From: Escherichia phage VpaE1_ev108
Length of the DNA: 64,000 bases
Sequence record: LR597658
Reading direction: 5' to 3' (one strand)
Shown: positions 11,670 through 30,986 of the stretch, piece by piece
Layout: every line of letters begins with the position of its first letter
Numbering within the stretch: the stretch's first letter is position 1
Position numbers and translations under genes: made by a program
Notes under the pieces: generated by a model
Databases searched by the model: none
What the model was told of the DNA's origin: nothing
The model's input: only the letters and a program-made list of their open reading frames with translations

Positions 11670-11915
11670 ATGATGAACTATTTCAATGTCCCTGATACCT
11701 GCCGACTATTGACACAAGAAGAAAACTTGGGTAAACCTTTTCTTTACCACATGCCAGACAACACCCCAAAAACTTATAGTTACAATGTCAACCGTTTTAC
11801 CGCATACGCTGCAAAGAACGGTTATAAGTTGGTCACTCAAAAAGTAATGCTGGTTACAACCGCTGACGAGATTCCTACAGTTGCAGTTAAACTAATTTTC
11901 TCAAAAAAAAGTTAA
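11670..11915 (+). CDS. hypothetical protein
   Basis: 81 aa ORF behind type-B cassette. Confidence 0.55.
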   Translation: MMNYFNVPDTCRLLTQEENLGKPFLYHMPDNTPKTYSYNVNRFTAYAAKNGYKLVTQKVMLVTTADEIPTVAVKLIFSKKS

Positions 11916-12004
11916 ATAAAGTACTTTACAAGGGGCTTATAGTTCGATAAAGTAAGCCCCAGATAAAGAGCTTTACCACTAAATCCTAAACTGGAGATTC
12001 AAAA
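11915..12004 (+). repeat. type-B hairpin-leader cassette (copy 6)
   Basis: near-identical to copies at 9362 and 10786. Confidence 0.7.
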
Positions 12005-23977: not shown

Positions 23978-24349
23978 ATGAAAAACAGAACAAACAAAGG
24001 CCAGTTTAAAAAAGGCCAGTCTGGAAACCCATCTGGAAGACCAAAAGGCTCTCGTAACAAAAGCTCACTTGTAAAAGCTCAACTGACCATTGATAATTCT
24101 GCTGAGTTTGCTGCAAAGTTGTTTGAGGCGATTGTTACAAGGGACGCTGCTAAGCTTGCAGAGTTCGGGTTAAACACAGACGACGTAACCATCAAGAGCA
24201 TGATTGAGGTAGGTAAAACTATCTTTACTCACTCAGCAGGTGAGATGAAAGCACTTGCAGCAGACACTAAGAAGACTCCTGATAATGGTGGTCAACAACA
24301 GACAGATAACAAACCAACGTTCTCTGCTGTTGCAACCCTCAAAAAATAA
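23978..24349 (+). CDS. hypothetical protein with GNPSGRPKG motif
   Basis: 123 aa ORF, AGAGG SD; basic Gly/Pro N-terminus. Confidence 0.5.
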   Translation: MKNRTNKGQFKKGQSGNPSGRPKGSRNKSSLVKAQLTIDNSAEFAAKLFEAIVTRDAAKLAEFGLNTDDVTIKSMIEVGKTIFTHSAGEMKALAADTKKTPDNGGQQQTDNKPTFSAVATLKK

Positions 24350-24392
24350 TTTTAAAAGGTGTTGACAGACTCTACAAAGTTGCTCTAAAGTC
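24345..24392 (+). promoter_or_regulatory. sigma70-like promoter
   Basis: TTTTAAAAGGTG-TTGACA - 18 nt - TAAAGT. Confidence 0.45.
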
Positions 24393-24430: not shown

Positions 24431-25846
24431 ATGAGCGAATTATTTAAACATGCGCACCTTCATGCAGGTCGAACTGAAAATGGTGCTATAAACCATACTT
24501 CATCAATGTCTGCTCTTGTAGACTTTTACAAAGCTGCGGGTTCTAGCCGTAGCAATGTAGAAATCTTACCAGACCTGTTCTACAAAGCTTTGCGTGAGGA
24601 TGTTGATGTTGCAGTTCGTATTTTGCTTCATATGCGAGATGTACGAGAGGGTATGGGTGAGCGTAAAGCTTTCCGAACCGTTTTGCTTCAAGCAATTGAA
24701 GATAAAGTTTTAGAGCCTACACAGGTTCTTCGCATTATGGATAAGATTGCAGAACTTGGTCGTTTTGATGACTTCAAAATCTTCGTAGGTACTCGTTTCG
24801 AGACAGATGCCTTCAAACATTTAGAAGCAGCATTACTAGACCCTGCAACAGCAGGTTTGGCAGCTAAGTGGTTACCACGAGTAAAACCACGTCATAAGCA
24901 GTTTGTAAAACGTTTCTGCAAGTTTGCCAACTTGAGTGAGAAAGAGTACCGCACACTGTTGTCTGCACTATCTGATACAGTTGAGCAAAAAATCTCTGCT
25001 AATGAGTTTGGTAAGATTGACTACAGTAAGATTCCTTCTCTTGCTGCTGCACGTTACCAAAAGCTGTTTAACCGTAAAGATGGAGAGCGTTACAAAGCTT
25101 ACATCGAGTCCTTATCAAAAGGTGAGACTAAGATTAACGCTGGTGCTGTTTACCCATACGATGTGATTAAATCTGTTAAGTATGGTAATGCAGATGTTGC
25201 TAATGAGCAGTGGAAAGCACTACCAAACTGGATGGCAGAAGGTGAAAACATCTTGTGTATGTCTGATGTATCAAGTTCAATGTCTTGGGTGAATTTTGGC
25301 TCCATTACTGCTCTGGATATTGGTGTATCACTTGCCTTGTATGTAGCAGAACGCAATACAGGTTGCTTTAAGAATGAGTTAATGGTTTATTCAACAAACC
25401 CTCACTTCATCGAACTGAGTGGTGATTTACGAAACCGTCATCGTCAGGTGATGCGACACGTTGAATATGGCTCAACTAACTTACAAGCAGCTTTTGACCG
25501 CATTCTTGAAACAGGTAAAAGAAACAACTTGACTCAGAAAGATATGCCAAGTAAGCTTATCATCTTCTCCGATATGGAGTTCAATCAGGTTGATGGAGCT
25601 AACGGTCGTACAAACTTTGAAGCAATTCAGAGTAAGTACAAAAAAGCTGGATATGAGATGCCACAACTGGTATTCTGGTACTTAGCAAACCGTAATGGTA
25701 CTTGCGAAGTATCTGTTAAGGATAACGGTGTAGCAATGGTATCAGGGTTCTCTCCAGCCACTTTAAAAGCTCTGCTTGGTGGTGAGAAGTTTGACCCAAT
25801 CAGCGTAATGCTCAAAGCAGTAATGATTGACCGTTATATCTGGTAA
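24431..25846 (+). CDS. Ro60/TROVE-like protein with C-terminal vWA domain (MIDAS motif)
   Basis: GENILCMSDVSSSMSW (DxSxS MIDAS, cf. Ro60 ..DVSASM as recalled), GSTNLQAAF, LIIFSDMEFN vWA motifs; ~270 aa helical N-terminal region; GAGAG SD. Confidence 0.6.
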   Translation: MSELFKHAHLHAGRTENGAINHTSSMSALVDFYKAAGSSRSNVEILPDLFYKALREDVDVAVRILLHMRDVREGMGERKAFRTVLLQAIEDKVLEPTQVLRIMDKIAELGRFDDFKIFVGTRFETDAFKHLEAALLDPATAGLAAKWLPRVKPRHKQFVKRFCKFANLSEKEYRTLLSALSDTVEQKISANEFGKIDYSKIPSLAAARYQKLFNRKDGERYKAYIESLSKGETKINAGAVYPYDVIKSVKYGNADVANEQWKALPNWMAEGENILCMSDVSSSMSWVNFGSITALDIGVSLALYVAERNTGCFKNELMVYSTNPHFIELSGDLRNRHRQVMRHVEYGSTNLQAAFDRILETGKRNNLTQKDMPSKLIIFSDMEFNQVDGANGRTNFEAIQSKYKKAGYEMPQLVFWYLANRNGTCEVSVKDNGVAMVSGFSPATLKALLGGEKFDPISVMLKAVMIDRYIW

Positions 25847-25849
25847 AAA

Positions 25850-25895
25850 GTTTTAAAAAGGGTATTGACAATGTGTTTAATACCCTTTAATATGT
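25850..25895 (+). promoter_or_regulatory. sigma70-like promoter upstream of tRNA island
   Basis: TTTTAAAAAGGGTA-TTGACA - 17 nt - TAATAT. Confidence 0.55.
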
Positions 25896-25949: not shown

Positions 25950-25990
25950 AAGTTCTTGACAATCACTAAAAAATAATGTTAAAGTGGTTA
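25950..25990 (+). promoter_or_regulatory. sigma70-like promoter upstream of tRNA island
   Basis: TTTTAAAAAAGTTC-TTGACA - 18 nt - TAAAGT. Confidence 0.45.
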
Positions 25991-26011: not shown

Positions 26012-26088
26012 CTCTGTTTAGCTCAGCTTGGTAGAGCGTTCCGTTTGGGGCGGTAAGGCCGGAGGTTCAAGTCCTCCAACAGAGACCA
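26012..26088 (+). tRNA. tRNA-Pro (anticodon UGG)
   Basis: acceptor CTCTGTT/AACAGAG, T-arm GGAGG-TTCAAGT-CCTCC, loop ttTGGgg, encoded CCA. Confidence 0.6.
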
Positions 26089-26095
26089 AATTAAT

Positions 26096-26173
26096 GTTCC
26101 AGTAGACAAAATGGTAAAGTCACCACTCTTTCAAAGTGGATATCTGAGGGTTCAAATCCCTTCTGGAACGCCA
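26096..26173 (+). tRNA. tRNA-Glu (anticodon UUC)
   Basis: acceptor GTTCCAG/CTGGAAC, T-loop TTCAAAT, anticodon stem CCACT/AGTGG, loop ctTTCaa, CCA. Confidence 0.65.
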
Positions 26174-26178
26174 GTTTT

Positions 26179-26256
26179 GACAGAAGACCAATTACAGCAA
26201 ACTTAATCTTATTCATCTGAAGGTAAATCGGACAAAGAAGAGATTTGGTCTGGTCA
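26179..26256 (+). repeat. E1: conserved bulged-stem element (CAGAAGACCAA ... TTGGTCTGG)
   Basis: 5' block CAGAAGACCAATTACAGCAA and 3' block TTGGTCTGG form a 7 bp helix enclosing ~52 nt. Confidence 0.5.
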
Positions 26257-26264
26257 TTAAGAAT

Positions 26265-26341
26265 TGCGGGTATAGAGAAAGGGCGTCTCACATGTCTCAT
26301 TAGCATGGTATCGGCAGGTTCGACTCCTGCACCCGCCTCCA
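26265..26341 (+). tRNA. tRNA with CAU anticodon (Met, fMet or Ile-lysidine type)
   Basis: T-arm GCAGG-TTCGACT-CCTGC, acceptor with mismatch at pair 1-72, loop ctCATta, CCA. Confidence 0.5.
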
Positions 26342-26345
26342 AATT

Positions 26346-26415
26346 TACAGAAGACCGTTTACAGCAATATTTATTAAATTTTTAGCGGAAAAAATTGAAA
26401 GATACGGTCTGGTAA
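26346..26415 (+). repeat. E2: conserved bulged-stem element (CAGAAGACCGT ... ACGGTCTGG)
   Basis: same flanks as E1 with compensatory AA/TT to GT/AC change in the helix. Confidence 0.5.
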
Positions 26416-26425
26416 TACTAAACAT

Positions 26426-26502
26426 GGTTAGGAAGCACATAAGGTATGTGCGGTCGCCTGTTAAGCGAATGGCACAGGGTTCGAATCCCTGACTAACCGC
26501 CA
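26426..26502 (+). tRNA. tRNA-Asn (anticodon GUU)
   Basis: T-arm CAGGG-TTCGAAT-CCCTG, loop ctGTTaa, CCA. Confidence 0.65.
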
Positions 26503-26571
26503 AATTTAGGAGAGAAGCGATTGCTCACCGATTTGTAAGGTGCAAGTCCTTAGCCTGAATAGAAATTAAAT

Positions 26572-26659
26572 GTGTCGTTATCCCGTAGATGGTAGCGGTG
26601 GGGACTGTAAATCCCTTGTCATTGAGACTCGGTAGGTTCGACTCCTACACGGCACACCA
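26572..26659 (+). tRNA. tRNA-Tyr (anticodon GUA), long variable arm
   Basis: 88 nt; acceptor GTGTCGT/ACGGCAC, anticodon stem GGGGA/TCCCT, loop ctGTAaa, T-loop TTCGACT, CCA. Confidence 0.65.
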
Positions 26660-26664
26660 ATAAA

Positions 26665-26742
26665 GGTTATGTAGTTTAATTTGGTTAAAATACTCCCCTG
26701 TCACGGGAGATGATGAGGGTTCAAATCCCTTCGTAACCGCCA
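26665..26742 (+). tRNA. tRNA-Asp (anticodon GUC)
   Basis: anticodon stem CTCCC/GGGAG, loop ctGTCac, T-loop TTCAAAT, CCA. Confidence 0.7.
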
Positions 26743-26801
26743 ATTTTGAGAGGGCTATTTAGCCCCTCCCTTAAAGGGTTCTTACGAGTATTCTTTAAAG
26801 G

Positions 26802-26880
26802 AGCAGAAGACCAAATTCAGCAAGTTACTTAAAATTTCAAGCCAATTTAATTTTGAAAAATTTAAAACTTGGTCTGGCTC
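26802..26880 (+). repeat. E3: conserved bulged-stem element (CAGAAGACCAA ... TTGGTCTGG)
   Basis: same conserved flanks, ~54 nt AT-rich insert. Confidence 0.5.
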
Positions 26881-26888
26881 AACAAATT

Positions 26889-27024
26889 TACAGAAGACCG
26901 TTTACAGCAAAACTTAACAATCTATTTCTCCGGTAAAGAAAAGGCGAAGGTTCGATTCCTTCACTCGGCAGATGTCGAGTTGGTGTAATGGTAGTACTTA
27001 AGATGATAAACAACGGTCTGGTAA
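26889..27024 (+). ncRNA. E4: candidate structured RNA, bulged stem enclosing a tRNA-like T-arm (Y-RNA-like?)
   Basis: CAGAAGACCGT ... ACGGTCTGG helix; interior has perfect T-arm GAAGG-TTCGATT-CCTTC, a second hairpin ACTCG..CGAGT and D-loop-like AGTTGGTGTAATGGTAG, but no acceptor stem. Confidence 0.35.
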
Positions 27025-27170
27025 TTATCTTTGTAGATAAGTTATTAAGCTTACCTGTGAGTATGCGACCACAAAGGGTGAAAGGGTAAATTCTAGATTT
27101 AAACCCAAAAAGGCACATCGCTACAGACCTTAAGCAAGTCTGGGTAGCTTATCTACAAAGATAATTTAAT

Positions 27171-27246
27171 GGAAGTGTAGCAGAATGGTGATGCGGCAGA
27201 CTTTTAATCTGACAGGCGATGGGTTCGAATCCCTCCACTTCTACCA
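27171..27246 (+). tRNA. tRNA-Lys (anticodon UUU)
   Basis: acceptor GGAAGTG/CACTTCT, loop ctTTTaa, T-loop TTCGAAT, CCA. Confidence 0.6.
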
Positions 27247-27250
27247 ATAT

Positions 27251-27327
27251 GGTTCAGTCGCAGATAAGGTAATGCAAGGGTCTCATAAGCCCTATGAATG
27301 TGGGTTCGATTCCCATCTGAACCTCCA
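27251..27327 (+). tRNA. tRNA-Met (anticodon CAU; GGG/CCC anticodon stem)
   Basis: acceptor GGTTCAG/CTGAACC, loop ctCATaa, T-arm GTGGG-TTCGATT-CCCAT, CCA. Confidence 0.65.
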
Positions 27328-27328
27328 A

Positions 27329-27404
27329 GCTGGTATAGTTAAGAAGGTTATAACACTCCCCTGATAAGGGAACATCGGTGGTTCGATTCCACCTACCAGT
27401 ACCA
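27329..27404 (+). tRNA. tRNA-Ile (anticodon GAU)
   Basis: loop ctGATaa, T-arm GGTGG-TTCGATT-CCACC, CCA. Confidence 0.65.
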
Positions 27405-27411
27405 ATTTCAA

Positions 27412-27450
27412 TAAAGTTGTTGACATTGAGATGTGACTACTTTATAGTAA
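27412..27450 (+). promoter_or_regulatory. sigma70-like promoter internal to tRNA island
   Basis: AAAGTTG-TTGACA - 17 nt - TATAGT. Confidence 0.55.
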
Positions 27451-27651
27451 CCTTAGTTTTCGTTGCGTAGCGTCTATTTTGCAAATTTAAAATAAATGCA
27501 AACGACAATGTTTTTCTGGCAGTAGCTTGATAGGCTAAACACCAGTGAGGTCTTCCAATCCCTCATCAAAGAATTTGGCGTACTCGCCCACGGTATGATT
27601 AATAAGGTGGGCATCTTTAAGGGCTTTCTAAGAGAGTCTTTAAAGATTAAT

Positions 27652-27728
27652 GCACCCTTAGTTCAACTGGACAGAGCAAATGACTTCTAATCATTGAGTT
27701 ACAGGTTCGAATCCTGTAGGGTGTGCCA
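27652..27728 (+). tRNA. tRNA-Arg (anticodon UCU)
   Basis: acceptor GCACCCT/AGGGTGT, anticodon stem AATGA/TCATT, loop ctTCTaa, T-arm ACAGG-TTCGAAT-CCTGT, CCA. Confidence 0.7.
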
Positions 27729-27870
27729 ATTAGTTAGCAGATTACTTAGACGACCTAAGCGGGTCTTCCTGTAGGGAGGTGGTCTGTATCTCATGTTTTC
27801 CAGAACATGTAAATAATCTGAGAAGGGGCTTTACAGTGTTGAGATAATACGGTAAGCTTCGAATTATAGT

Positions 27871-27953
27871 ATGGGACGATGTTAAGACTCTAAGGCATGA
27901 GCAACGGCTTCCAACACCGTTTCAAAGGGGTTCAACTCCTCCGTCCCATGCCA
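27871..27953 (+). tRNA. tRNA-Trp-like (anticodon CCA), atypical 83 nt with enlarged D region
   Basis: perfect acceptor ATGGGAC/GTCCCAT, T-loop TTCAACT, loop ttCCAac, CCA; D-arm cannot be folded canonically. Confidence 0.4.
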
Positions 27954-27966
27954 AAATCTTATTAGG

Positions 27967-28054
27967 GGTAGGTAGCGGCTAATGGTAGCCAAACTGTCTT
28001 GAAAACAGTTGCCACTGTAGAGATACGGTGAGGGTTCGACTCCTTTACTTACCG
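27967..28054 (+). tRNA. tRNA-Ser (anticodon UGA), long variable arm, no encoded CCA
   Basis: 88 nt; anticodon stem ACTGT/ACAGT, loop ctTGAaa, 3-bp D stem, T-loop TTCGACT. Confidence 0.6.
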
Positions 28055-28210
28055 CCTAATAAGATTTAAAGCCAAGCTTCATTCGGATGTTGCTTTGGTA
28101 TCCCGCGTGTATTGTTGTACACACTGATAAAGCACCTAGTAGGTGTCACGGAGAAGAGATAATATCAAGCTCTCCAAAGGTTCTAGTCACCGGATTAAAC
28201 AAGACTATGC

Positions 28211-28233
28211 AAAGACCTTTTTAGGTCTTTTTA
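28211..28233 (+). terminator. hairpin plus T-run inside tRNA island
   Basis: AAGACC-ttttta-GGTCTT followed by TTTTAG; stem uses the same AGACC/GGTCT motif as the E elements. Confidence 0.35.
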
Positions 28234-28311
28234 GAGGGCTTCTAAGGTTATTACAGCTTGTTGTGGAACCTTGTTGCTTAGGTTCTTAGAAGTTCTCTAA
28301 AAAGATTTAAT

Positions 28312-28389
28312 GGGAGATTGACGGTAATTGGTAAACCTATCTCGCTTAGAACGAGATGTTTGAGGGTTCGAATCCCTTGTCTCCTACCA
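28312..28389 (+). tRNA. tRNA with UAG anticodon (Leu by anticodon; class-I length)
   Basis: acceptor GGGAGAT/GTCTCCT, anticodon stem TCTCG/CGAGA, loop ctTAGaa, T-arm GAGGG-TTCGAAT-CCCTT, CCA; short variable arm. Confidence 0.5.
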
Positions 28390-28396
28390 AATTAAT

Positions 28397-28472
28397 GCAG
28401 GTGTAGCAAAATGGTTATGCGGCTGACTCTTAATCAGTAAGACGATGGGTTCAATTCCCTCCACCTGTACCA
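28397..28472 (+). tRNA. tRNA-Lys (anticodon CUU)
   Basis: acceptor GCAGGTG/CACCTGT, loop ctCTTaa, T-loop TTCAATT, CCA. Confidence 0.55.
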
Positions 28473-28477
28473 AAAAT

Positions 28478-28553
28478 GGGGTCATAGTTTATATGGTTAA
28501 AATTCGAGTTTTGCAAACTTGGGAACTGAGTTCAATTCTCAGTGACTCCACCA
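28478..28553 (+). tRNA. tRNA-Ala (anticodon UGC)
   Basis: G3:U70 pair in acceptor stem, loop ttTGCaa, T-arm CTGAG-TTCAATT-CTCAG, CCA. Confidence 0.7.
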
Positions 28554-28559
28554 ATTAGT

Positions 28560-28634
28560 GCATCCATAGTTTAAACGGGAAAATTACAGTCTTCCAAACT
28601 GAGGTTGAGGGTTCGATTCCCTCTGGATGCTCCA
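28560..28634 (+). tRNA. tRNA-Gly (anticodon UCC)
   Basis: perfect acceptor GCATCCA/TGGATGC, loop ctTCCaa, T-loop TTCGATT, CCA. Confidence 0.7.
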
Positions 28635-28641
28635 AATTAAT

Positions 28642-28717
28642 GCTTCTATCGTATAATTGGCTATTACGGTTGCCTTGTAAGTAACTTATCAGGGTTCGAA
28701 TCCTTGTGGGAGCACCA
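28642..28717 (+). tRNA. tRNA-Thr (anticodon UGU)
   Basis: anticodon stem GTTGC/GTAAC, loop ctTGTaa, T-arm CAGGG-TTCGAAT-CCTTG, CCA. Confidence 0.65.
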
Positions 28718-28814
28718 ATTTAGAGGTCAAGTGAAAGACCGCTTTGAGTCAACTGAAGACCGTAACAAATTCCACGGAGTTGAGTTAGCGGCACAACTCC
28801 AGACCTCTTCTCAC

Positions 28815-28889
28815 ACTCGCTTAGTTTATATGGTAAAACACCACCCTTACAAGATGAAGAAAAAGGTTCAAGTCCTTTAGTGAGTACCA
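28815..28889 (+). tRNA. tRNA-Val-like (anticodon UAC), weak anticodon stem, possible pseudo-tRNA
   Basis: acceptor ACTCGCT/AGTGAGT, D-arm GTTT..AAAC, loop ctTACaa, T-arm AAAGG-TTCAAGT-CCTTT, CCA; anticodon stem pairs only 3 of 5. Confidence 0.4.
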
Positions 28890-28890
28890 T

Positions 28891-28968
28891 GTTCCAGTAT
28901 CCCAATTGGCAGAGGATGCAAGCTCAAACCTTGTACTAGTGACGGTTCGAATCCGTCTTGGAACACCA
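28891..28968 (+). tRNA. tRNA with CAA anticodon (Leu by anticodon; class-I length)
   Basis: acceptor GTTCCAG/TTGGAAC, anticodon stem GCAAG/CTTGT, loop ctCAAac, T-arm GACGG-TTCGAAT-CCGTC, CCA. Confidence 0.5.
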
Positions 28969-28973
28969 ATTTT

Positions 28974-29049
28974 GCAGGATTAGTTCAAATGGATAGAGCA
29001 ACAGTCTACGAAGCTGTTAATAGGGGTTCGAATCCCTTATCCTGCGCCA
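28974..29049 (+). tRNA. tRNA-Arg (anticodon ACG)
   Basis: perfect acceptor GCAGGAT/ATCCTGC, D-arm GTTC..GAGC, loop ctACGaa, T-loop TTCGAAT, CCA. Confidence 0.7.
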
Positions 29050-29068
29050 ATTTAAAGAGGCTATTTAG

Positions 29069-29626
29069 ATGAGATATTTGAAGTATGCTTCATGGATTTT
29101 CTTAGCTTTGTTAGAACCATTTGCAGCAATCTTAGCAGTTATCTTAGCACCTTTTGTAGTTCCATTCTACAGTGAGAAGAAAGGACACTTACCTTTCGGG
29201 TTCAGATGGATGGAGACATATGACAACCCAATTGATGGTGATGAAGGTCACGTTAAAAGATGGGCTAATATTAGATGGATTGGTAAACTAGGTGTCTACA
29301 TGCAAAGAGTCGGATGGCTCTGGAGAAACAAAGCTTATAACTTCTCTTACCATGTGTTAGGAAGAGATGTAAAAGATGTTACTAAGTGGAAAGGTAATAT
29401 CAACGTAAGTTCTAACCCTGAAGATAATCAGACAGGTTATCTCCTAATGTGGAACAGTAATGCTTGGGGATTATTCGCTTTTACCCCATCAATTAAAATC
29501 TTTGGTAAACAGTTTTACTGGAGAATTTATATTGGGTGGAAGCTAAAAAGTGTTGTCCCAGAAGAAAGAGCATTCTCAAGGGAAAGAGTTATGTTGGCAT
29601 TCTTTATTCATCCACTAAGAAAGTAA
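29069..29626 (+). CDS. hypothetical Trp-rich membrane protein embedded in tRNA island
   Basis: 185 aa ORF; N-terminal hydrophobic segment WIFLALLEPFAAILAVILAPFVV; AAGAGG SD; TTA/AGA-rich codon usage unlike structural genes. Confidence 0.55.
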   Translation: MRYLKYASWIFLALLEPFAAILAVILAPFVVPFYSEKKGHLPFGFRWMETYDNPIDGDEGHVKRWANIRWIGKLGVYMQRVGWLWRNKAYNFSYHVLGRDVKDVTKWKGNINVSSNPEDNQTGYLLMWNSNAWGLFAFTPSIKIFGKQFYWRIYIGWKLKSVVPEERAFSRERVMLAFFIHPLRK

Positions 29627-29634
29627 AGATTTAA

Positions 29635-29710
29635 AGGGGATTAGTTTACAAGGTTAAAACCTCGGTCTTTGAAATCGAAGAAGTTGGTTCAATTCCAACA
29701 TCCCCCGCCA
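29635..29710 (+). tRNA. tRNA-Gln (anticodon UUG)
   Basis: anticodon stem TCGGT/ATCGA, loop ctTTGaa, T-arm GTTGG-TTCAATT-CCAAC, CCA. Confidence 0.55.
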
Positions 29711-29712
29711 AT

Positions 29713-29791
29713 GCTCCATTACTCCAATTGGCAGAGAGGCCAGACTTAAAATCTGTGTTATGTATCGGTTCGAATCCGATATGGAGTACCA
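29713..29791 (+). tRNA. tRNA with UAA anticodon (Leu by anticodon; class-I length)
   Basis: acceptor GCTCCAT/ATGGAGT, loop ctTAAaa, T-arm ATCGG-TTCGAAT-CCGAT, CCA; variable region about 8 nt. Confidence 0.45.
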
Positions 29792-29796
29792 AATTT

Positions 29797-29872
29797 AGCG
29801 GTATAGCATAACTGGCAATGCAGCAGCCTCTGAAGCTGTCCTATTAAGGTTCAAATCCTTATGCCGCTGCCA
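29797..29872 (+). tRNA. tRNA-Gln (anticodon CUG)
   Basis: anticodon stem GCAGC/GCTGT, loop ctCTGaa, T-arm TAAGG-TTCAAAT-CCTTA, CCA. Confidence 0.6.
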
Positions 29873-29903
29873 CTTCTAAGGATTCTTGCGAGAGTCCTTA
29901 AAT

Positions 29904-29979
29904 GTGGCCTTATCATAAACGGTAATGACCCATGCTGTGAACATGGTCTATACGGGTTCAAATCCCGTAGGTCACCCCA
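29904..29979 (+). tRNA. tRNA-His (anticodon GUG)
   Basis: anticodon stem CCATG/CATGG, loop ctGTGaa, T-arm ACGGG-TTCAAAT-CCCGT, CCA. Confidence 0.65.
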
Positions 29980-29984
29980 ATTTA

Positions 29985-30061
29985 TAGTCCAAGTAGCTTA
30001 TATGGTTAAAGCGCGTGTCTGAAAAACATGAGAAGAGGGTTCAAATCCCACTGGACTACCA
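29985..30061 (+). tRNA. tRNA-Phe (anticodon GAA)
   Basis: perfect acceptor TAGTCCA/TGGACTA, loop ctGAAaa, T-loop TTCAAAT. Confidence 0.6.
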
Positions 30062-30077
30062 ATTTCAAAGGTGCTTA

Positions 30078-30812
30078 ATGAAAGAGATGACAGAACAAGG
30101 TAAGGAGATTTTTAATCTCTTAAAAACCGGTAAAGGGTTCTCTAACCCACTTATTACTGGTGCAGCAGTTCTCGGTGGAACCGTAGCTGCTTCTACATCA
30201 CTTGTAAGCTCTATTAGTTCTGTAACAGACCCTACAATGAAGGAGAAACTTGTTGCTGCTGGACTTACAACAGTCCTTCTAAACAGCTTTACAACAAGCC
30301 TTACAAGCACTACAGCAACTACTAAAACTCTGACAGACTACGGTCAAAAGTCTATTGATGAGTTTTCATCACGTATGCAGGTAGCAAAGGGGTATTCCAA
30401 TGTTATGGGTGCAGCAGGAGAACAAGTTGGTTGTACACCATTCAGTGGTATCATGGGTGTTGCTACAGAGTATGGTCAAAAAGCTATTGACATGATGAAC
30501 AGTACACTAGATAGTGTTAATGGTGTGTTAAGTGACTTGCAAGATGCTATTGATAAGGGTCTTGATACTGTTTCTGATTTAGCTAATCAGGCTGTTAGTA
30601 AGATTAATGAAGGTATTTCAAAGATTACAGCTTATGCAGATGAAGTTGTGCAGATGATTGAAGAAGAAGCTGCCCTTATTGCAGAGTACCTTAAAACGAA
30701 TATCAATGGGTTCTTAGCAGGTATCTTACCAGACTGGTTTGATGATGCCTGTAAAACTGGTGTAATTGACACTATTGCAACACCAGAAATGAAGAGCGCA
30801 TTACAGAAATAA
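30078..30812 (+). CDS. hypothetical Ser/Thr-rich coiled-coil protein
   Basis: start moved to ATG 30078 because ORF-track start 30015 lies inside tRNA-Phe; 244 aa. Confidence 0.5.
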   Translation: MKEMTEQGKEIFNLLKTGKGFSNPLITGAAVLGGTVAASTSLVSSISSVTDPTMKEKLVAAGLTTVLLNSFTTSLTSTTATTKTLTDYGQKSIDEFSSRMQVAKGYSNVMGAAGEQVGCTPFSGIMGVATEYGQKAIDMMNSTLDSVNGVLSDLQDAIDKGLDTVSDLANQAVSKINEGISKITAYADEVVQMIEEEAALIAEYLKTNINGFLAGILPDWFDDACKTGVIDTIATPEMKSALQK

Positions 30813-30813
30813 T

Positions 30814-30906
30814 GGAAGATTAACCCTAAAAGGTAAGGGAGCAGTTTGCTAAACTGCCAGTAGCTGAGAAATCGGTGTACCAGTTCAAGTCTGGTATCTT
30901 CCTCCA
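30814..30906 (+). tRNA. tRNA-Ser (anticodon GCU), long variable arm
   Basis: 93 nt; acceptor GGAAGAT/ATCTTCC, anticodon stem GCAGT/ACTGC, loop ttGCTaa, T-arm ACCAG-TTCAAGT-CTGGT, CCA. Confidence 0.65.
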
Positions 30907-30910
30907 ATTT

Positions 30911-30986
30911 GAATCCGTGACAGAAATGGCTATGTGCCTGTCTGCAAAACAGGTTTATAAGGGTTCGAGTCCCTTCGGATTCTCCA
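30911..30986 (+). tRNA. tRNA-Cys (anticodon GCA)
   Basis: perfect acceptor GAATCCG/CGGATTC, anticodon stem CCTGT/ACAGG, loop ctGCAaa, T-loop TTCGAGT, CCA. Confidence 0.7.

Follow-up and report, generated by a model that had tools for sequence, protein, structure and literature searches.

The closest described relative of the gene considered here, which lies at positions 24431 to 25846 (plus strand) of a 64,000-nucleotide (nt) stretch of Escherichia phage VpaE1_ev108 (sequence record LR597658), is gene 130 of phage Bas63 (Escherichia phage JohannRWettstein, GenBank MZ501086). The whole stretch is called the window, and all positions count from its first letter. Bas63 was studied in the PhageMaP preprint of October 2024 (PMC11482910), whose authors reported that the gene product, gp130, is highly similar in structure to Ro60 and suggested that some of the "tRNA genes" directly downstream might be Y RNAs. 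Deletion of gene 130 in Bas63 results in tiny plaques on a host carrying Ppl, a defense protein with an ATPase and a PHP domain, and complementation reverses this defect (PMC11482910). The ortholog gp130 is 98% identical to the protein from the window, has the same length of 471 amino acids (aa), and is encoded at the same position directly upstream of tRNA-Pro. A Ro60-like reading of the gene, including its counter-defense phenotype, is therefore already published for this ortholog. Those genetic results also lend support, with Ppl as the target, to the counter-defense role that had been proposed in an earlier interpretation made from the letters of the window alone (the sequence-only reading). 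The more specific ideas of that reading, tRNA repair or an action against anticodon nucleases, are speculative.

Ro60 is a protein of RNA quality control that is characterized by the binding of Y RNA to its outer surface and of misfolded RNA ends within its central cavity. Other descriptions of phage-encoded relatives provide further points of comparison. In the crystal structure available for the Ro60 of Thermus phage phiLo, two adjacent Y-like RNAs and host PNPase are bound (PMC12135203). ROT/TROVE proteins with tRNA-like partners have been noted in jumbo phages (Iyer et al. 2021, PMC7824862), and ORF 64 of the Vibrio jumbo phage pir03 has been noted as "Ro60-related" (PMC7765460). Among the Y RNAs, YrlA carries an effector domain in which a T stem-loop, a closed acceptor stem, and a D stem-loop occur in that order (Rfam consensus RF02553; YrlA structure paper). 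Searches of the literature on DUF2828, phage YrlA, the Ppl mechanism, and Felix O1 small RNAs yielded nothing beyond the papers cited here.

Comparative analysis of the VpaE1_ev108 locus favors, by a modest margin over even odds, a divergent Ro60-Y RNA system in which the Ro60-like protein is accompanied by its own Y-RNA-like partners, three of them short (E1 to E3) and one long (E4). Judging by sequence comparisons, these four small RNAs probably form the RNA partners of the protein. As part of the same reading, it is somewhat probable that the protein family has co-evolved with Y-like RNAs of its own, comprising short YrlB-like forms and long, tRNA-mimicking YrlA-like forms that are built on one stem-plus-CAGCAA module. 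The grounds for this interpretation are the fold, the MIDAS residues, covarying RNA structures, synteny, and the anti-Ppl phenotype of the ortholog.

The gene begins with ATG and encodes exactly the 471-aa product given in the sequence-only reading. That reading had described a vWA domain with an intact MIDAS motif preceded by about 270 aa of helical sequence, and each part of this description holds. The translation contains both quoted motifs, GENILCMSDVSSSMSW at residues 271-286 and IIFSDMEFN at residues 377-385. Of the MIDAS residues (pattern DxSxS ... T ... D; D279, S281, S283, T349, and D381), none varies when 45 family members reaching down to 40% identity are aligned. The structure model is confident (predicted local distance difference test, 89; predicted template modeling score, 0.88) and divides the protein into a ring domain at aa 1-265, predicted to be all-helical with about 17 helices in its approximately 265 aa, and a vWA/MIDAS domain at aa 270-455. 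As modeled, the protein consists of a helical-repeat ring closed by a vWA domain, which is the Ro60 fold, and the helical domain matches the Ro60 ring, extending the resemblance beyond the vWA domain alone.

By family models, the protein is a full-length member of DUF2828 (PF11443; 6e-29, 101.5 bits against a cut-off of 29), DUF7788 (PF25043; aa 274-455, 2e-43, 148.8 bits against a cut-off of 27.1), and PHROG 850 (matched over its full length, 8e-184), entries that give no mechanism. The name "RNA-binding protein" carried by the PHROG and RefSeq entries is an annotation rather than the outcome of a test. The family comprises at least 2303 clusters and is found on at least 583 viral contigs, and Vibrio jumbo phages are among the sources of homologs. 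Taken jointly with the proposed RNA partnership, we lean toward regarding the gene product as a divergent Ro60-type protein, with a helical ring and a closing vWA/MIDAS domain, that is filed in Pfam as DUF2828 plus DUF7788.

The candidate RNA partners are found on the same strand 0.3-1.2 kb downstream of the gene, within the distance of <4 kb used by Chen et al. (2014). Here, the first kb of a tRNA island contains four copies of a 20-nt box, CAGAAGACC-N3-4-W-CAGCAA, each of which is followed 55-125 nt on by GGUCUGG. Four such arrangements compare with 0 expected by chance. The short elements are E1 (26178-26257, +), E2 (26345-26416, +), and E3 (26801-26881, +), and the long element with a permuted tRNA-like core is E4 (26888-27025, +). 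E1 fills the spacer between tRNA-Glu and tRNA-Met, and E2 the spacer between tRNA-Met and tRNA-Asn, to within 3-9 nt. An Rfam scan of the island yielded only tRNAs above threshold, and the weak matches to transfer-messenger RNA (tmRNA), MIR473, and sX4 models were set aside as noise or tRNA-like fragments. The presence of structured elements other than tRNAs in the cluster, which the sequence-only reading had noticed, is borne out by E1 to E4.

All four folds share the same closing architecture. A 4-base-pair (bp) outer helix A is followed by an asymmetric internal loop, invariantly AGA on the 5' side and G on the 3' side, and then by an inner helix B of 7-8 bp (AGACCNN/NNGGUCU), after which comes the single-stranded CAGCAA box. 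Helices A and B are UGAC/GUCA and AGACCAA/UUGGUCU in E1, UUAC/GUAA and AGACCGU/ACGGUCU in E2, and GAGC/GCUC and AGACCAA/UUGGUCU in E3. Across paralogs and orthologs, helix A occurs in four complementary versions (UUAC/GUAA, UGAC/GUCA, GAGC/GCUC, and UUGC/GCAA), and at the two inner pairs of helix B either GU/AC or AA/UU is found, against a constant AGACC/GGUCU core and AGA/G loop. In terms of a broad definition of Y RNAs, E1 to E4 display a covarying stem between their predicted ends and a conserved motif that may bind the protein, and they are called Y-like because of this architecture and not because of an Rfam model. Within the short elements (alignment A4; E1 to E3 in the window), the interiors are A-rich, with 46% A and 10% G. 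They also carry additional GCAA repeats past the first box (15 observed versus 3.7 expected), which may be additional binding sites.

Relatives of these elements were sought in 75 viral contigs carrying DUF2828 homologs of 38-47% identity, a set of 884 kb searched on both strands (loci are designated by L and a number). A pattern census of short stem-plus-box elements gave 141 on the plus strand and 57 on the minus strand, compared with 16-37 in shuffled sequences, and these elements adjoin most of the genes. Three features that were not imposed recur in them: the sequence starts with AGR, a WW spacer is present, and the 3' strand is followed by G. A covariance model, R1, was then trained on 32 stem-plus-box elements taken from the distant loci only. 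When applied to both strands of the whole window with filters off, R1 ranks E2 (40.3 bits, E 7e-8), E1 (31.8 bits, E 1.3e-5), E3 (29.6 bits, E 5e-5), and E4 (16.5 bits, E 0.15, a score penalized by its 70-nt insert) as the top four, with the next match at E 0.55. Among the distant loci, R1 produces 60 matches at E<=0.01, all 60 on the gene strand, in 45 loci; 28 of the 60 are absent from the training set.

Most R1 matches lie within a few hundred nt of a start or stop codon, and the model also recognizes elements in two additional loci, L125 and L127, in the latter at 14 nt past the gene. No R1 match occurs beside the canonical Ro60 gene of mycobacteriophage Bxz1. In many of the positive loci, tRNAs are lacking over a range of 6 kb, and it is therefore the gene, not tRNA clusters, that the RNA accompanies. 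The sequence-only reading had anticipated a Y-RNA-like partner beside the gene, and comparative genomics favors this view, with the partners being elements of the spacers between tRNAs and not the tRNAs themselves. The family has not been reported in Rfam or in the literature searched.

The placement of these elements raises the possibility that they act in cis, either as regulators or stabilizers in the untranslated regions (UTRs) of the DUF2828 mRNA, possibly for autoregulation, or as signals for tRNA-precursor processing or termination. Many distant elements begin about 30 nt past the stop codon or end a few nt before the start codon, which are UTR-like positions, and at some loci the 5' strand, of AAGG type, looks like a Shine-Dalgarno sequence. 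However, the window stem AGACC bears no such resemblance, and the elements occur either upstream or downstream of the gene, with as many as five or six in one array (L083). Moreover, between the gene and the elements of the window lie two to six tRNAs as well as a pair of promoters and a hairpin resembling a terminator, the elements are without U-tracts, and the complete tRNA-like domain of the long forms has no obvious role in cis. A cis-acting function is accordingly judged to be quite unlikely.

The long element E4 recalls YrlA. Within its closing stem, a hairpin at 26925-26941 comes first. A T arm with perfect pairing (GAAGG-UUCGAUU-CCUUC, 26946-26962) is next and is immediately adjoined by a closed acceptor-like hairpin of 7 bp (ACUCGGC-AGAU-GUCGAGU, 26963-26980), after which UG and a D arm (GUGU-AAUGGUA-GUAC, 26983-26997) complete the series. 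The order of T arm, closed hairpin, 2 nt, and D arm (26946-26997) is that of the permuted tRNA-like domain of YrlA. When 15 distinct E4 orthologs from Felixounavirus, Mooglevirus, and Suspvirus are analyzed with RNAalifold, the closing helices, T arm, hairpin, and D arm are all recovered unguided. Three pairs of the hairpin are doubly compensated over three lineages (ACUCGGC/GUCGAGU, ACACGU/GCGUGU, and ACCCUUC/GAAGGGU). A strict descriptor of the permuted module, whose false-positive rate is 0.23% per real T arm, finds one match in the 64-kb window, and this match is E4.

Differences in length among E4 orthologs are not multiples of three, which indicates that the region is non-coding. The mini-ORFs (ORF, open reading frame) that deposited genomes show on the minus strand over E3 and E4, such as Bas63 genes 137 and 138 (L003 8749-8901 and 8913-9023), are probably not genes; the equivalent ORF in the window is 26888-27118 (-). 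Existing knock-outs of Bas63 "g137" would in effect be knock-outs of E4.

Modules of the same kind recur at a distance. In the 75 loci, the permuted T-hairpin-D descriptor identifies nine free-standing modules on the gene strand, none on the opposite strand, and 0-1 per shuffle, and several of the nine directly flank the DUF2828 gene. Four other matches (L089, L097, L106, and L107) proved to be tandem tRNAs and were rejected as false positives. An attempt to build a covariance model of the permuted core from the distant loci was also abandoned, because MAFFT misaligned the arms, and the strict descriptor with its controls was used instead. The distant long forms are enclosed by a closing stem and then the box known from the window (UUUCAGCAAA, ACAGCAAC, or the variant CCGCAAUAAAA), and several carry the GCUC...GAGC D stem of YrlA. 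The Rfam YrlA model scores three of them at 41.9 bits (L017, E 7e-6), 39.2 bits (L025, E 4e-5), and 38.9 bits (L083, E 5e-5, matched over the full length of the model), compared with 32.5 bits for the accepted YrlA of Bxz1.

Given that tandem tRNAs can produce a similar T-arm ... D-arm pattern, as in the four false positives, E4 could instead be a decayed tRNA pair, comprising the 3' half of one tRNA and the 5' half of the next, with E1 to E3 as duplicated spacer remnants and all four functionless. The Rfam tRNA model does match the 3' two-thirds of E4 at 22 bits. Such decay would leave unexplained why three unrelated sequences all preserve 6-7 pairs in the hairpin that separates the T arm from the D arm, and why E4 is conserved over Felixounavirus, Mooglevirus, and Suspvirus when the flanking spacer is not. 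It would also not account for the E1 interior, which is wholly exchanged between phages while the closing stem and box are kept, or for the recognition of the elements by a model built from distant phages. Functionless decay is thus highly improbable.

A partnership of Ro60 and Y RNA type must be set against a number of observations that speak against it, beginning with the protein. The hidden Markov models (HMMs) for TROVE (PF05731) and vWA_Ro60 (PF25045) give no match to it at E<=1, and a control with the same library detects the genuine Ro60 of Bxz1 (gp220) by both (TROVE 9e-50, vWA_Ro60 4e-54). Among the TROVE, vWA, and DUF2828 models put forward with the sequence-only reading, only DUF2828 therefore matches. 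Alignment of the family profile with Bxz1 gp220 by hhalign covers 40 columns around the MIDAS loop only, at 67% probability. Searches of PDB sequences, with the single protein and then with a profile, returned nothing significant; Ro60 was the only vWA protein to appear in the profile search, at a non-significant E of 0.7. Because the two Ro60 models do not match, the resemblance to Ro60 is one of fold and not of family membership by sequence. These failed HMM matches, along with an identity of only 12-16% to Ro60 structures, are what would be expected if a generic vWA protein had been joined to an unrelated helical domain and its likeness to Ro60 were superficial. Since the helical domain itself matches the Ro60 ring, such a coincidence is barely credible.

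The RNAs present difficulties of their own. E4 gives no match to the Rfam YrlA model even at E<=10 (201 nt scanned), no AC stem is conserved in its alignment, and the conserved YrlA stems (D stem GCUC/GAGC and T stem GCGGG/CCCGC) are not present in it. Its own stems are GUGU/GUAC, or GCAC in most relatives, and GAAGG/CCUUC. Every distant YrlA-like match falls under the Rfam gathering score of 69 bits, although this model is narrow, as illustrated by the low score of the accepted Bxz1 RNA. Canonical YrlA has GGCGAAUG, an instance of the GNCGAAN0-1G motif, in the 5' strand of its Ro60-binding stem, whereas the equivalent position of E4 holds UUA-CAGCAA. The sole GNCGAAN0-1G match in the island, GGCGAAGG at 26943, is at the junction of the hairpin and T arm and not at the YrlA position. 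No weight was given to it, and a single match per 5 kb is about the chance level by a rough, uncomputed estimate.

Furthermore, 30 of the 75 distant loci have no R1 match, and the perfect pair statistics of alignment A4 are circular because complementarity was itself a criterion for choosing its elements; the case was instead rested on cross-detection, strand bias, and position. In one phage group, an RNA array of a short, a long tRNA-mimic, and a short element heads a tRNA-Gln cluster (L090 2413-2663, -; L093 8424-8674, +; also L099, L101, and L120), and no DUF2828 gene is found within the 8 kb available. This group may lack the gene or carry it in another part of the genome.

The remaining adverse observation comes from genetics. 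When supplied alone, on a plasmid or placed in T7, gp130 rescues the growth of T7 on Ppl (PMC11482910), and the RNAs of the island are consequently dispensable for the sole known phenotype. The protein might therefore act by itself, with its vWA/MIDAS face binding and blocking Ppl or another host factor and the neighboring RNAs playing no part. This alternative is unlikely, though it deserves serious attention, and it leaves three observations unexplained: a specific RNA family, found beside the gene in 45 of 75 highly divergent loci and never on the opposite strand; the recurrence of YrlA-type tRNA mimics near the gene; and the conservation of the whole Ro60 ring rather than of the vWA domain alone. 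Moreover, an RNA-independent role and a role within a ribonucleoprotein (RNP) are not mutually exclusive.

The preferred interpretation of a Ro60-like protein with its own Y-like RNAs suggests the following series of events. The two promoters downstream of the gene would drive joint transcription of E1 to E4 and the tRNAs. As the elements fill spacers between tRNAs, ordinary processing of tRNA 5' and 3' ends would be expected to release RNAs whose ends pair with each other. The stem-plus-box module (AGR-NNNN / NNNN-YCU and then G, with CAGCAA after the 5' strand) is the likely binding site for the protein, and it occupies the place of the GNCGAA-containing Ro60-binding stem of canonical YrlA. 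An RNP would thereby arise that acts on RNA in the infected cell. By analogy with the Ro60 systems of Deinococcus, Salmonella, and the Thermus phage, the Y-like RNAs would gate access to the ring cavity, and the long form E4 would tether the ring to a tRNA-recognizing host factor such as PNPase. Independently of E1 to E4, the protein would protect the phage from Ppl, as has been demonstrated for Bas63 gp130. Because this protection does not need phage RNAs, the protein may act without RNA or make use of host RNAs.

The genomic setting is that of a Felixounavirus, a Felix O1-type myovirus. The region around the gene is 99% identical to Escherichia phage fjerdesal, with wV8 also related, and in 99%-identical deposited genomes the gene is labeled "vWFA protein", "RNA-binding protein", or "hypothetical". 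A sigma70-like promoter (TTGACA-18-TAAAGT, 24362-24391, +) precedes the gene by consensus match only (10/12). A gene for a DUF5681 protein (23978-24349, +) lies directly upstream; this neighbor is kept in Ounavirinae and in L010, and is found in none of the other 74 distant loci. Directly after the stop codon, a terminator-like 12-bp hairpin with a T-rich tail (25857-25888, +) overlaps the first of two sigma70-like promoter sites of the tRNA island, TTGACA-17-TAATAT (25865-25893, +). The second is TTGACA-18-TAAAGT with TG (25956-25985, +). Both have perfect -35 boxes, and they correspond to the pair of promoters that had been proposed to follow the gene.

The island itself (26012-30986, +) holds 26 tRNA genes, all on one strand, with E1 to E4 embedded among them. 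Within it, a near-consensus sigma70 promoter (TTGACA-17-TATAGT, 11/12, 27420-27448, +) suggests that the island comprises more than one transcription unit. Several further structures are present. Neither ARAGORN nor Rfam calls a cloverleaf-like, tRNA-like RNA at 27868-27951 (+; fold z-score -2.74), whose long acceptor stem terminates in GCCA. Its T arm reads GGGGUUCAACUCCUC, and CCA (Trp) occurs in its 9-nt "anticodon" loop, CUUCCAACA; the 26 tRNAs that were called include none for Trp. Between tRNA-Ser and tRNA-Leu, a long hairpin with almost perfect pairing at 28221-28310 (+; z -4.26) attracts a spurious Rfam MIR473 match of 32.7 bits. Sub-threshold tmRNA-type matches (29.2 and 15.9 bits) at 27346-27651 (+), around a T-arm-like GUGAGGUCUUCCAAUCCCUCAU within a 247-nt gap, probably mark another tRNA-like remnant.

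No conserved protein neighbors are common to the three distant loci that were inspected. A T4 Rnl1-type RNA ligase and a metallophosphatase are found beside the DUF2828 gene in 2 and 4 of the 75 loci, respectively (L127 6279-7391, L013, and L028), which suggests a link to RNA repair, though the arrangement is not conserved. Phage tmRNA genes are found on the same strand about 4.4-5.3 kb downstream of the DUF2828 gene in L035, L041, L044, and L056, and upstream in L031. In L025, a group I intron (11696-11922, +; 71.5 bits, above the Rfam gathering score) lies a few kb downstream of the gene. In Citrobacter phage Moogle (L085, NC_027293), the tRNA genes are annotated on the strand opposite to their homologs in Mordin, Sf13, and CHB7, probably as an annotation error.

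If the RNAs do bind the protein, they would represent a second, phage-specific branch of Ro60-Y RNA systems with a different recognition motif, and would link tRNA-mimic RNAs to anti-defense. Bas63, for which knock-out libraries exist, would then offer a genetically tractable E. coli model for the action of Ro-type RNPs. In its broadest form, the proposal is that DUF2828/DUF7788 proteins and RNAs with an AGR-stem and CAGCAA box make up a widespread, unrecognized second lineage of Ro60-Y RNA RNPs, restricted to tailed phages, where it would span hundreds to thousands of genomes, and with its own recognition code. Its short RNAs and long tRNA mimics would be cut from tRNA operons or from the gene's own transcript, and the particle would be directed against host immunity, Ppl being the first of its targets to be recognized. 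We regard the chances for and against this broader proposal as evenly balanced.

What is added here to earlier work is a set of defined candidate partners, namely four spacer RNAs and a stem-plus-CAGCAA module that follows the protein family down to about 40% identity. The Bas63 study (PMC11482910) names no candidate RNA and describes no family-wide RNA synteny; the candidates proposed here are the spacer elements E1 to E4 and not annotated tRNAs. The idea that large phages employ Ro-type RNA-binding proteins for RNA repair or conflict is shared with the studies of jumbo phages (PMC7824862, PMC7765460), in which no RNA partner family was defined for DUF2828-type proteins. The ring and the vWA/MIDAS fold are common to this protein and canonical Ro60 (Rsr), and its ring domain is about 100 aa shorter than that of Xenopus Ro60. 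As with YrlA and YrlB beside Ro60 (Chen et al. 2014, PMC4201824; PMC12135203), the RNAs lie within a few kb of the gene on the same strand and occur in short and long forms, with their predicted 5' and 3' ends paired in a stem and a conserved motif where the 5' strand meets the loop. Unlike canonical Y RNAs, the Y-like RNAs of the Ounavirinae are embedded in a tRNA operon, and an AGR-stem with CAGCAA replaces the GNCGAAN0-1G motif.

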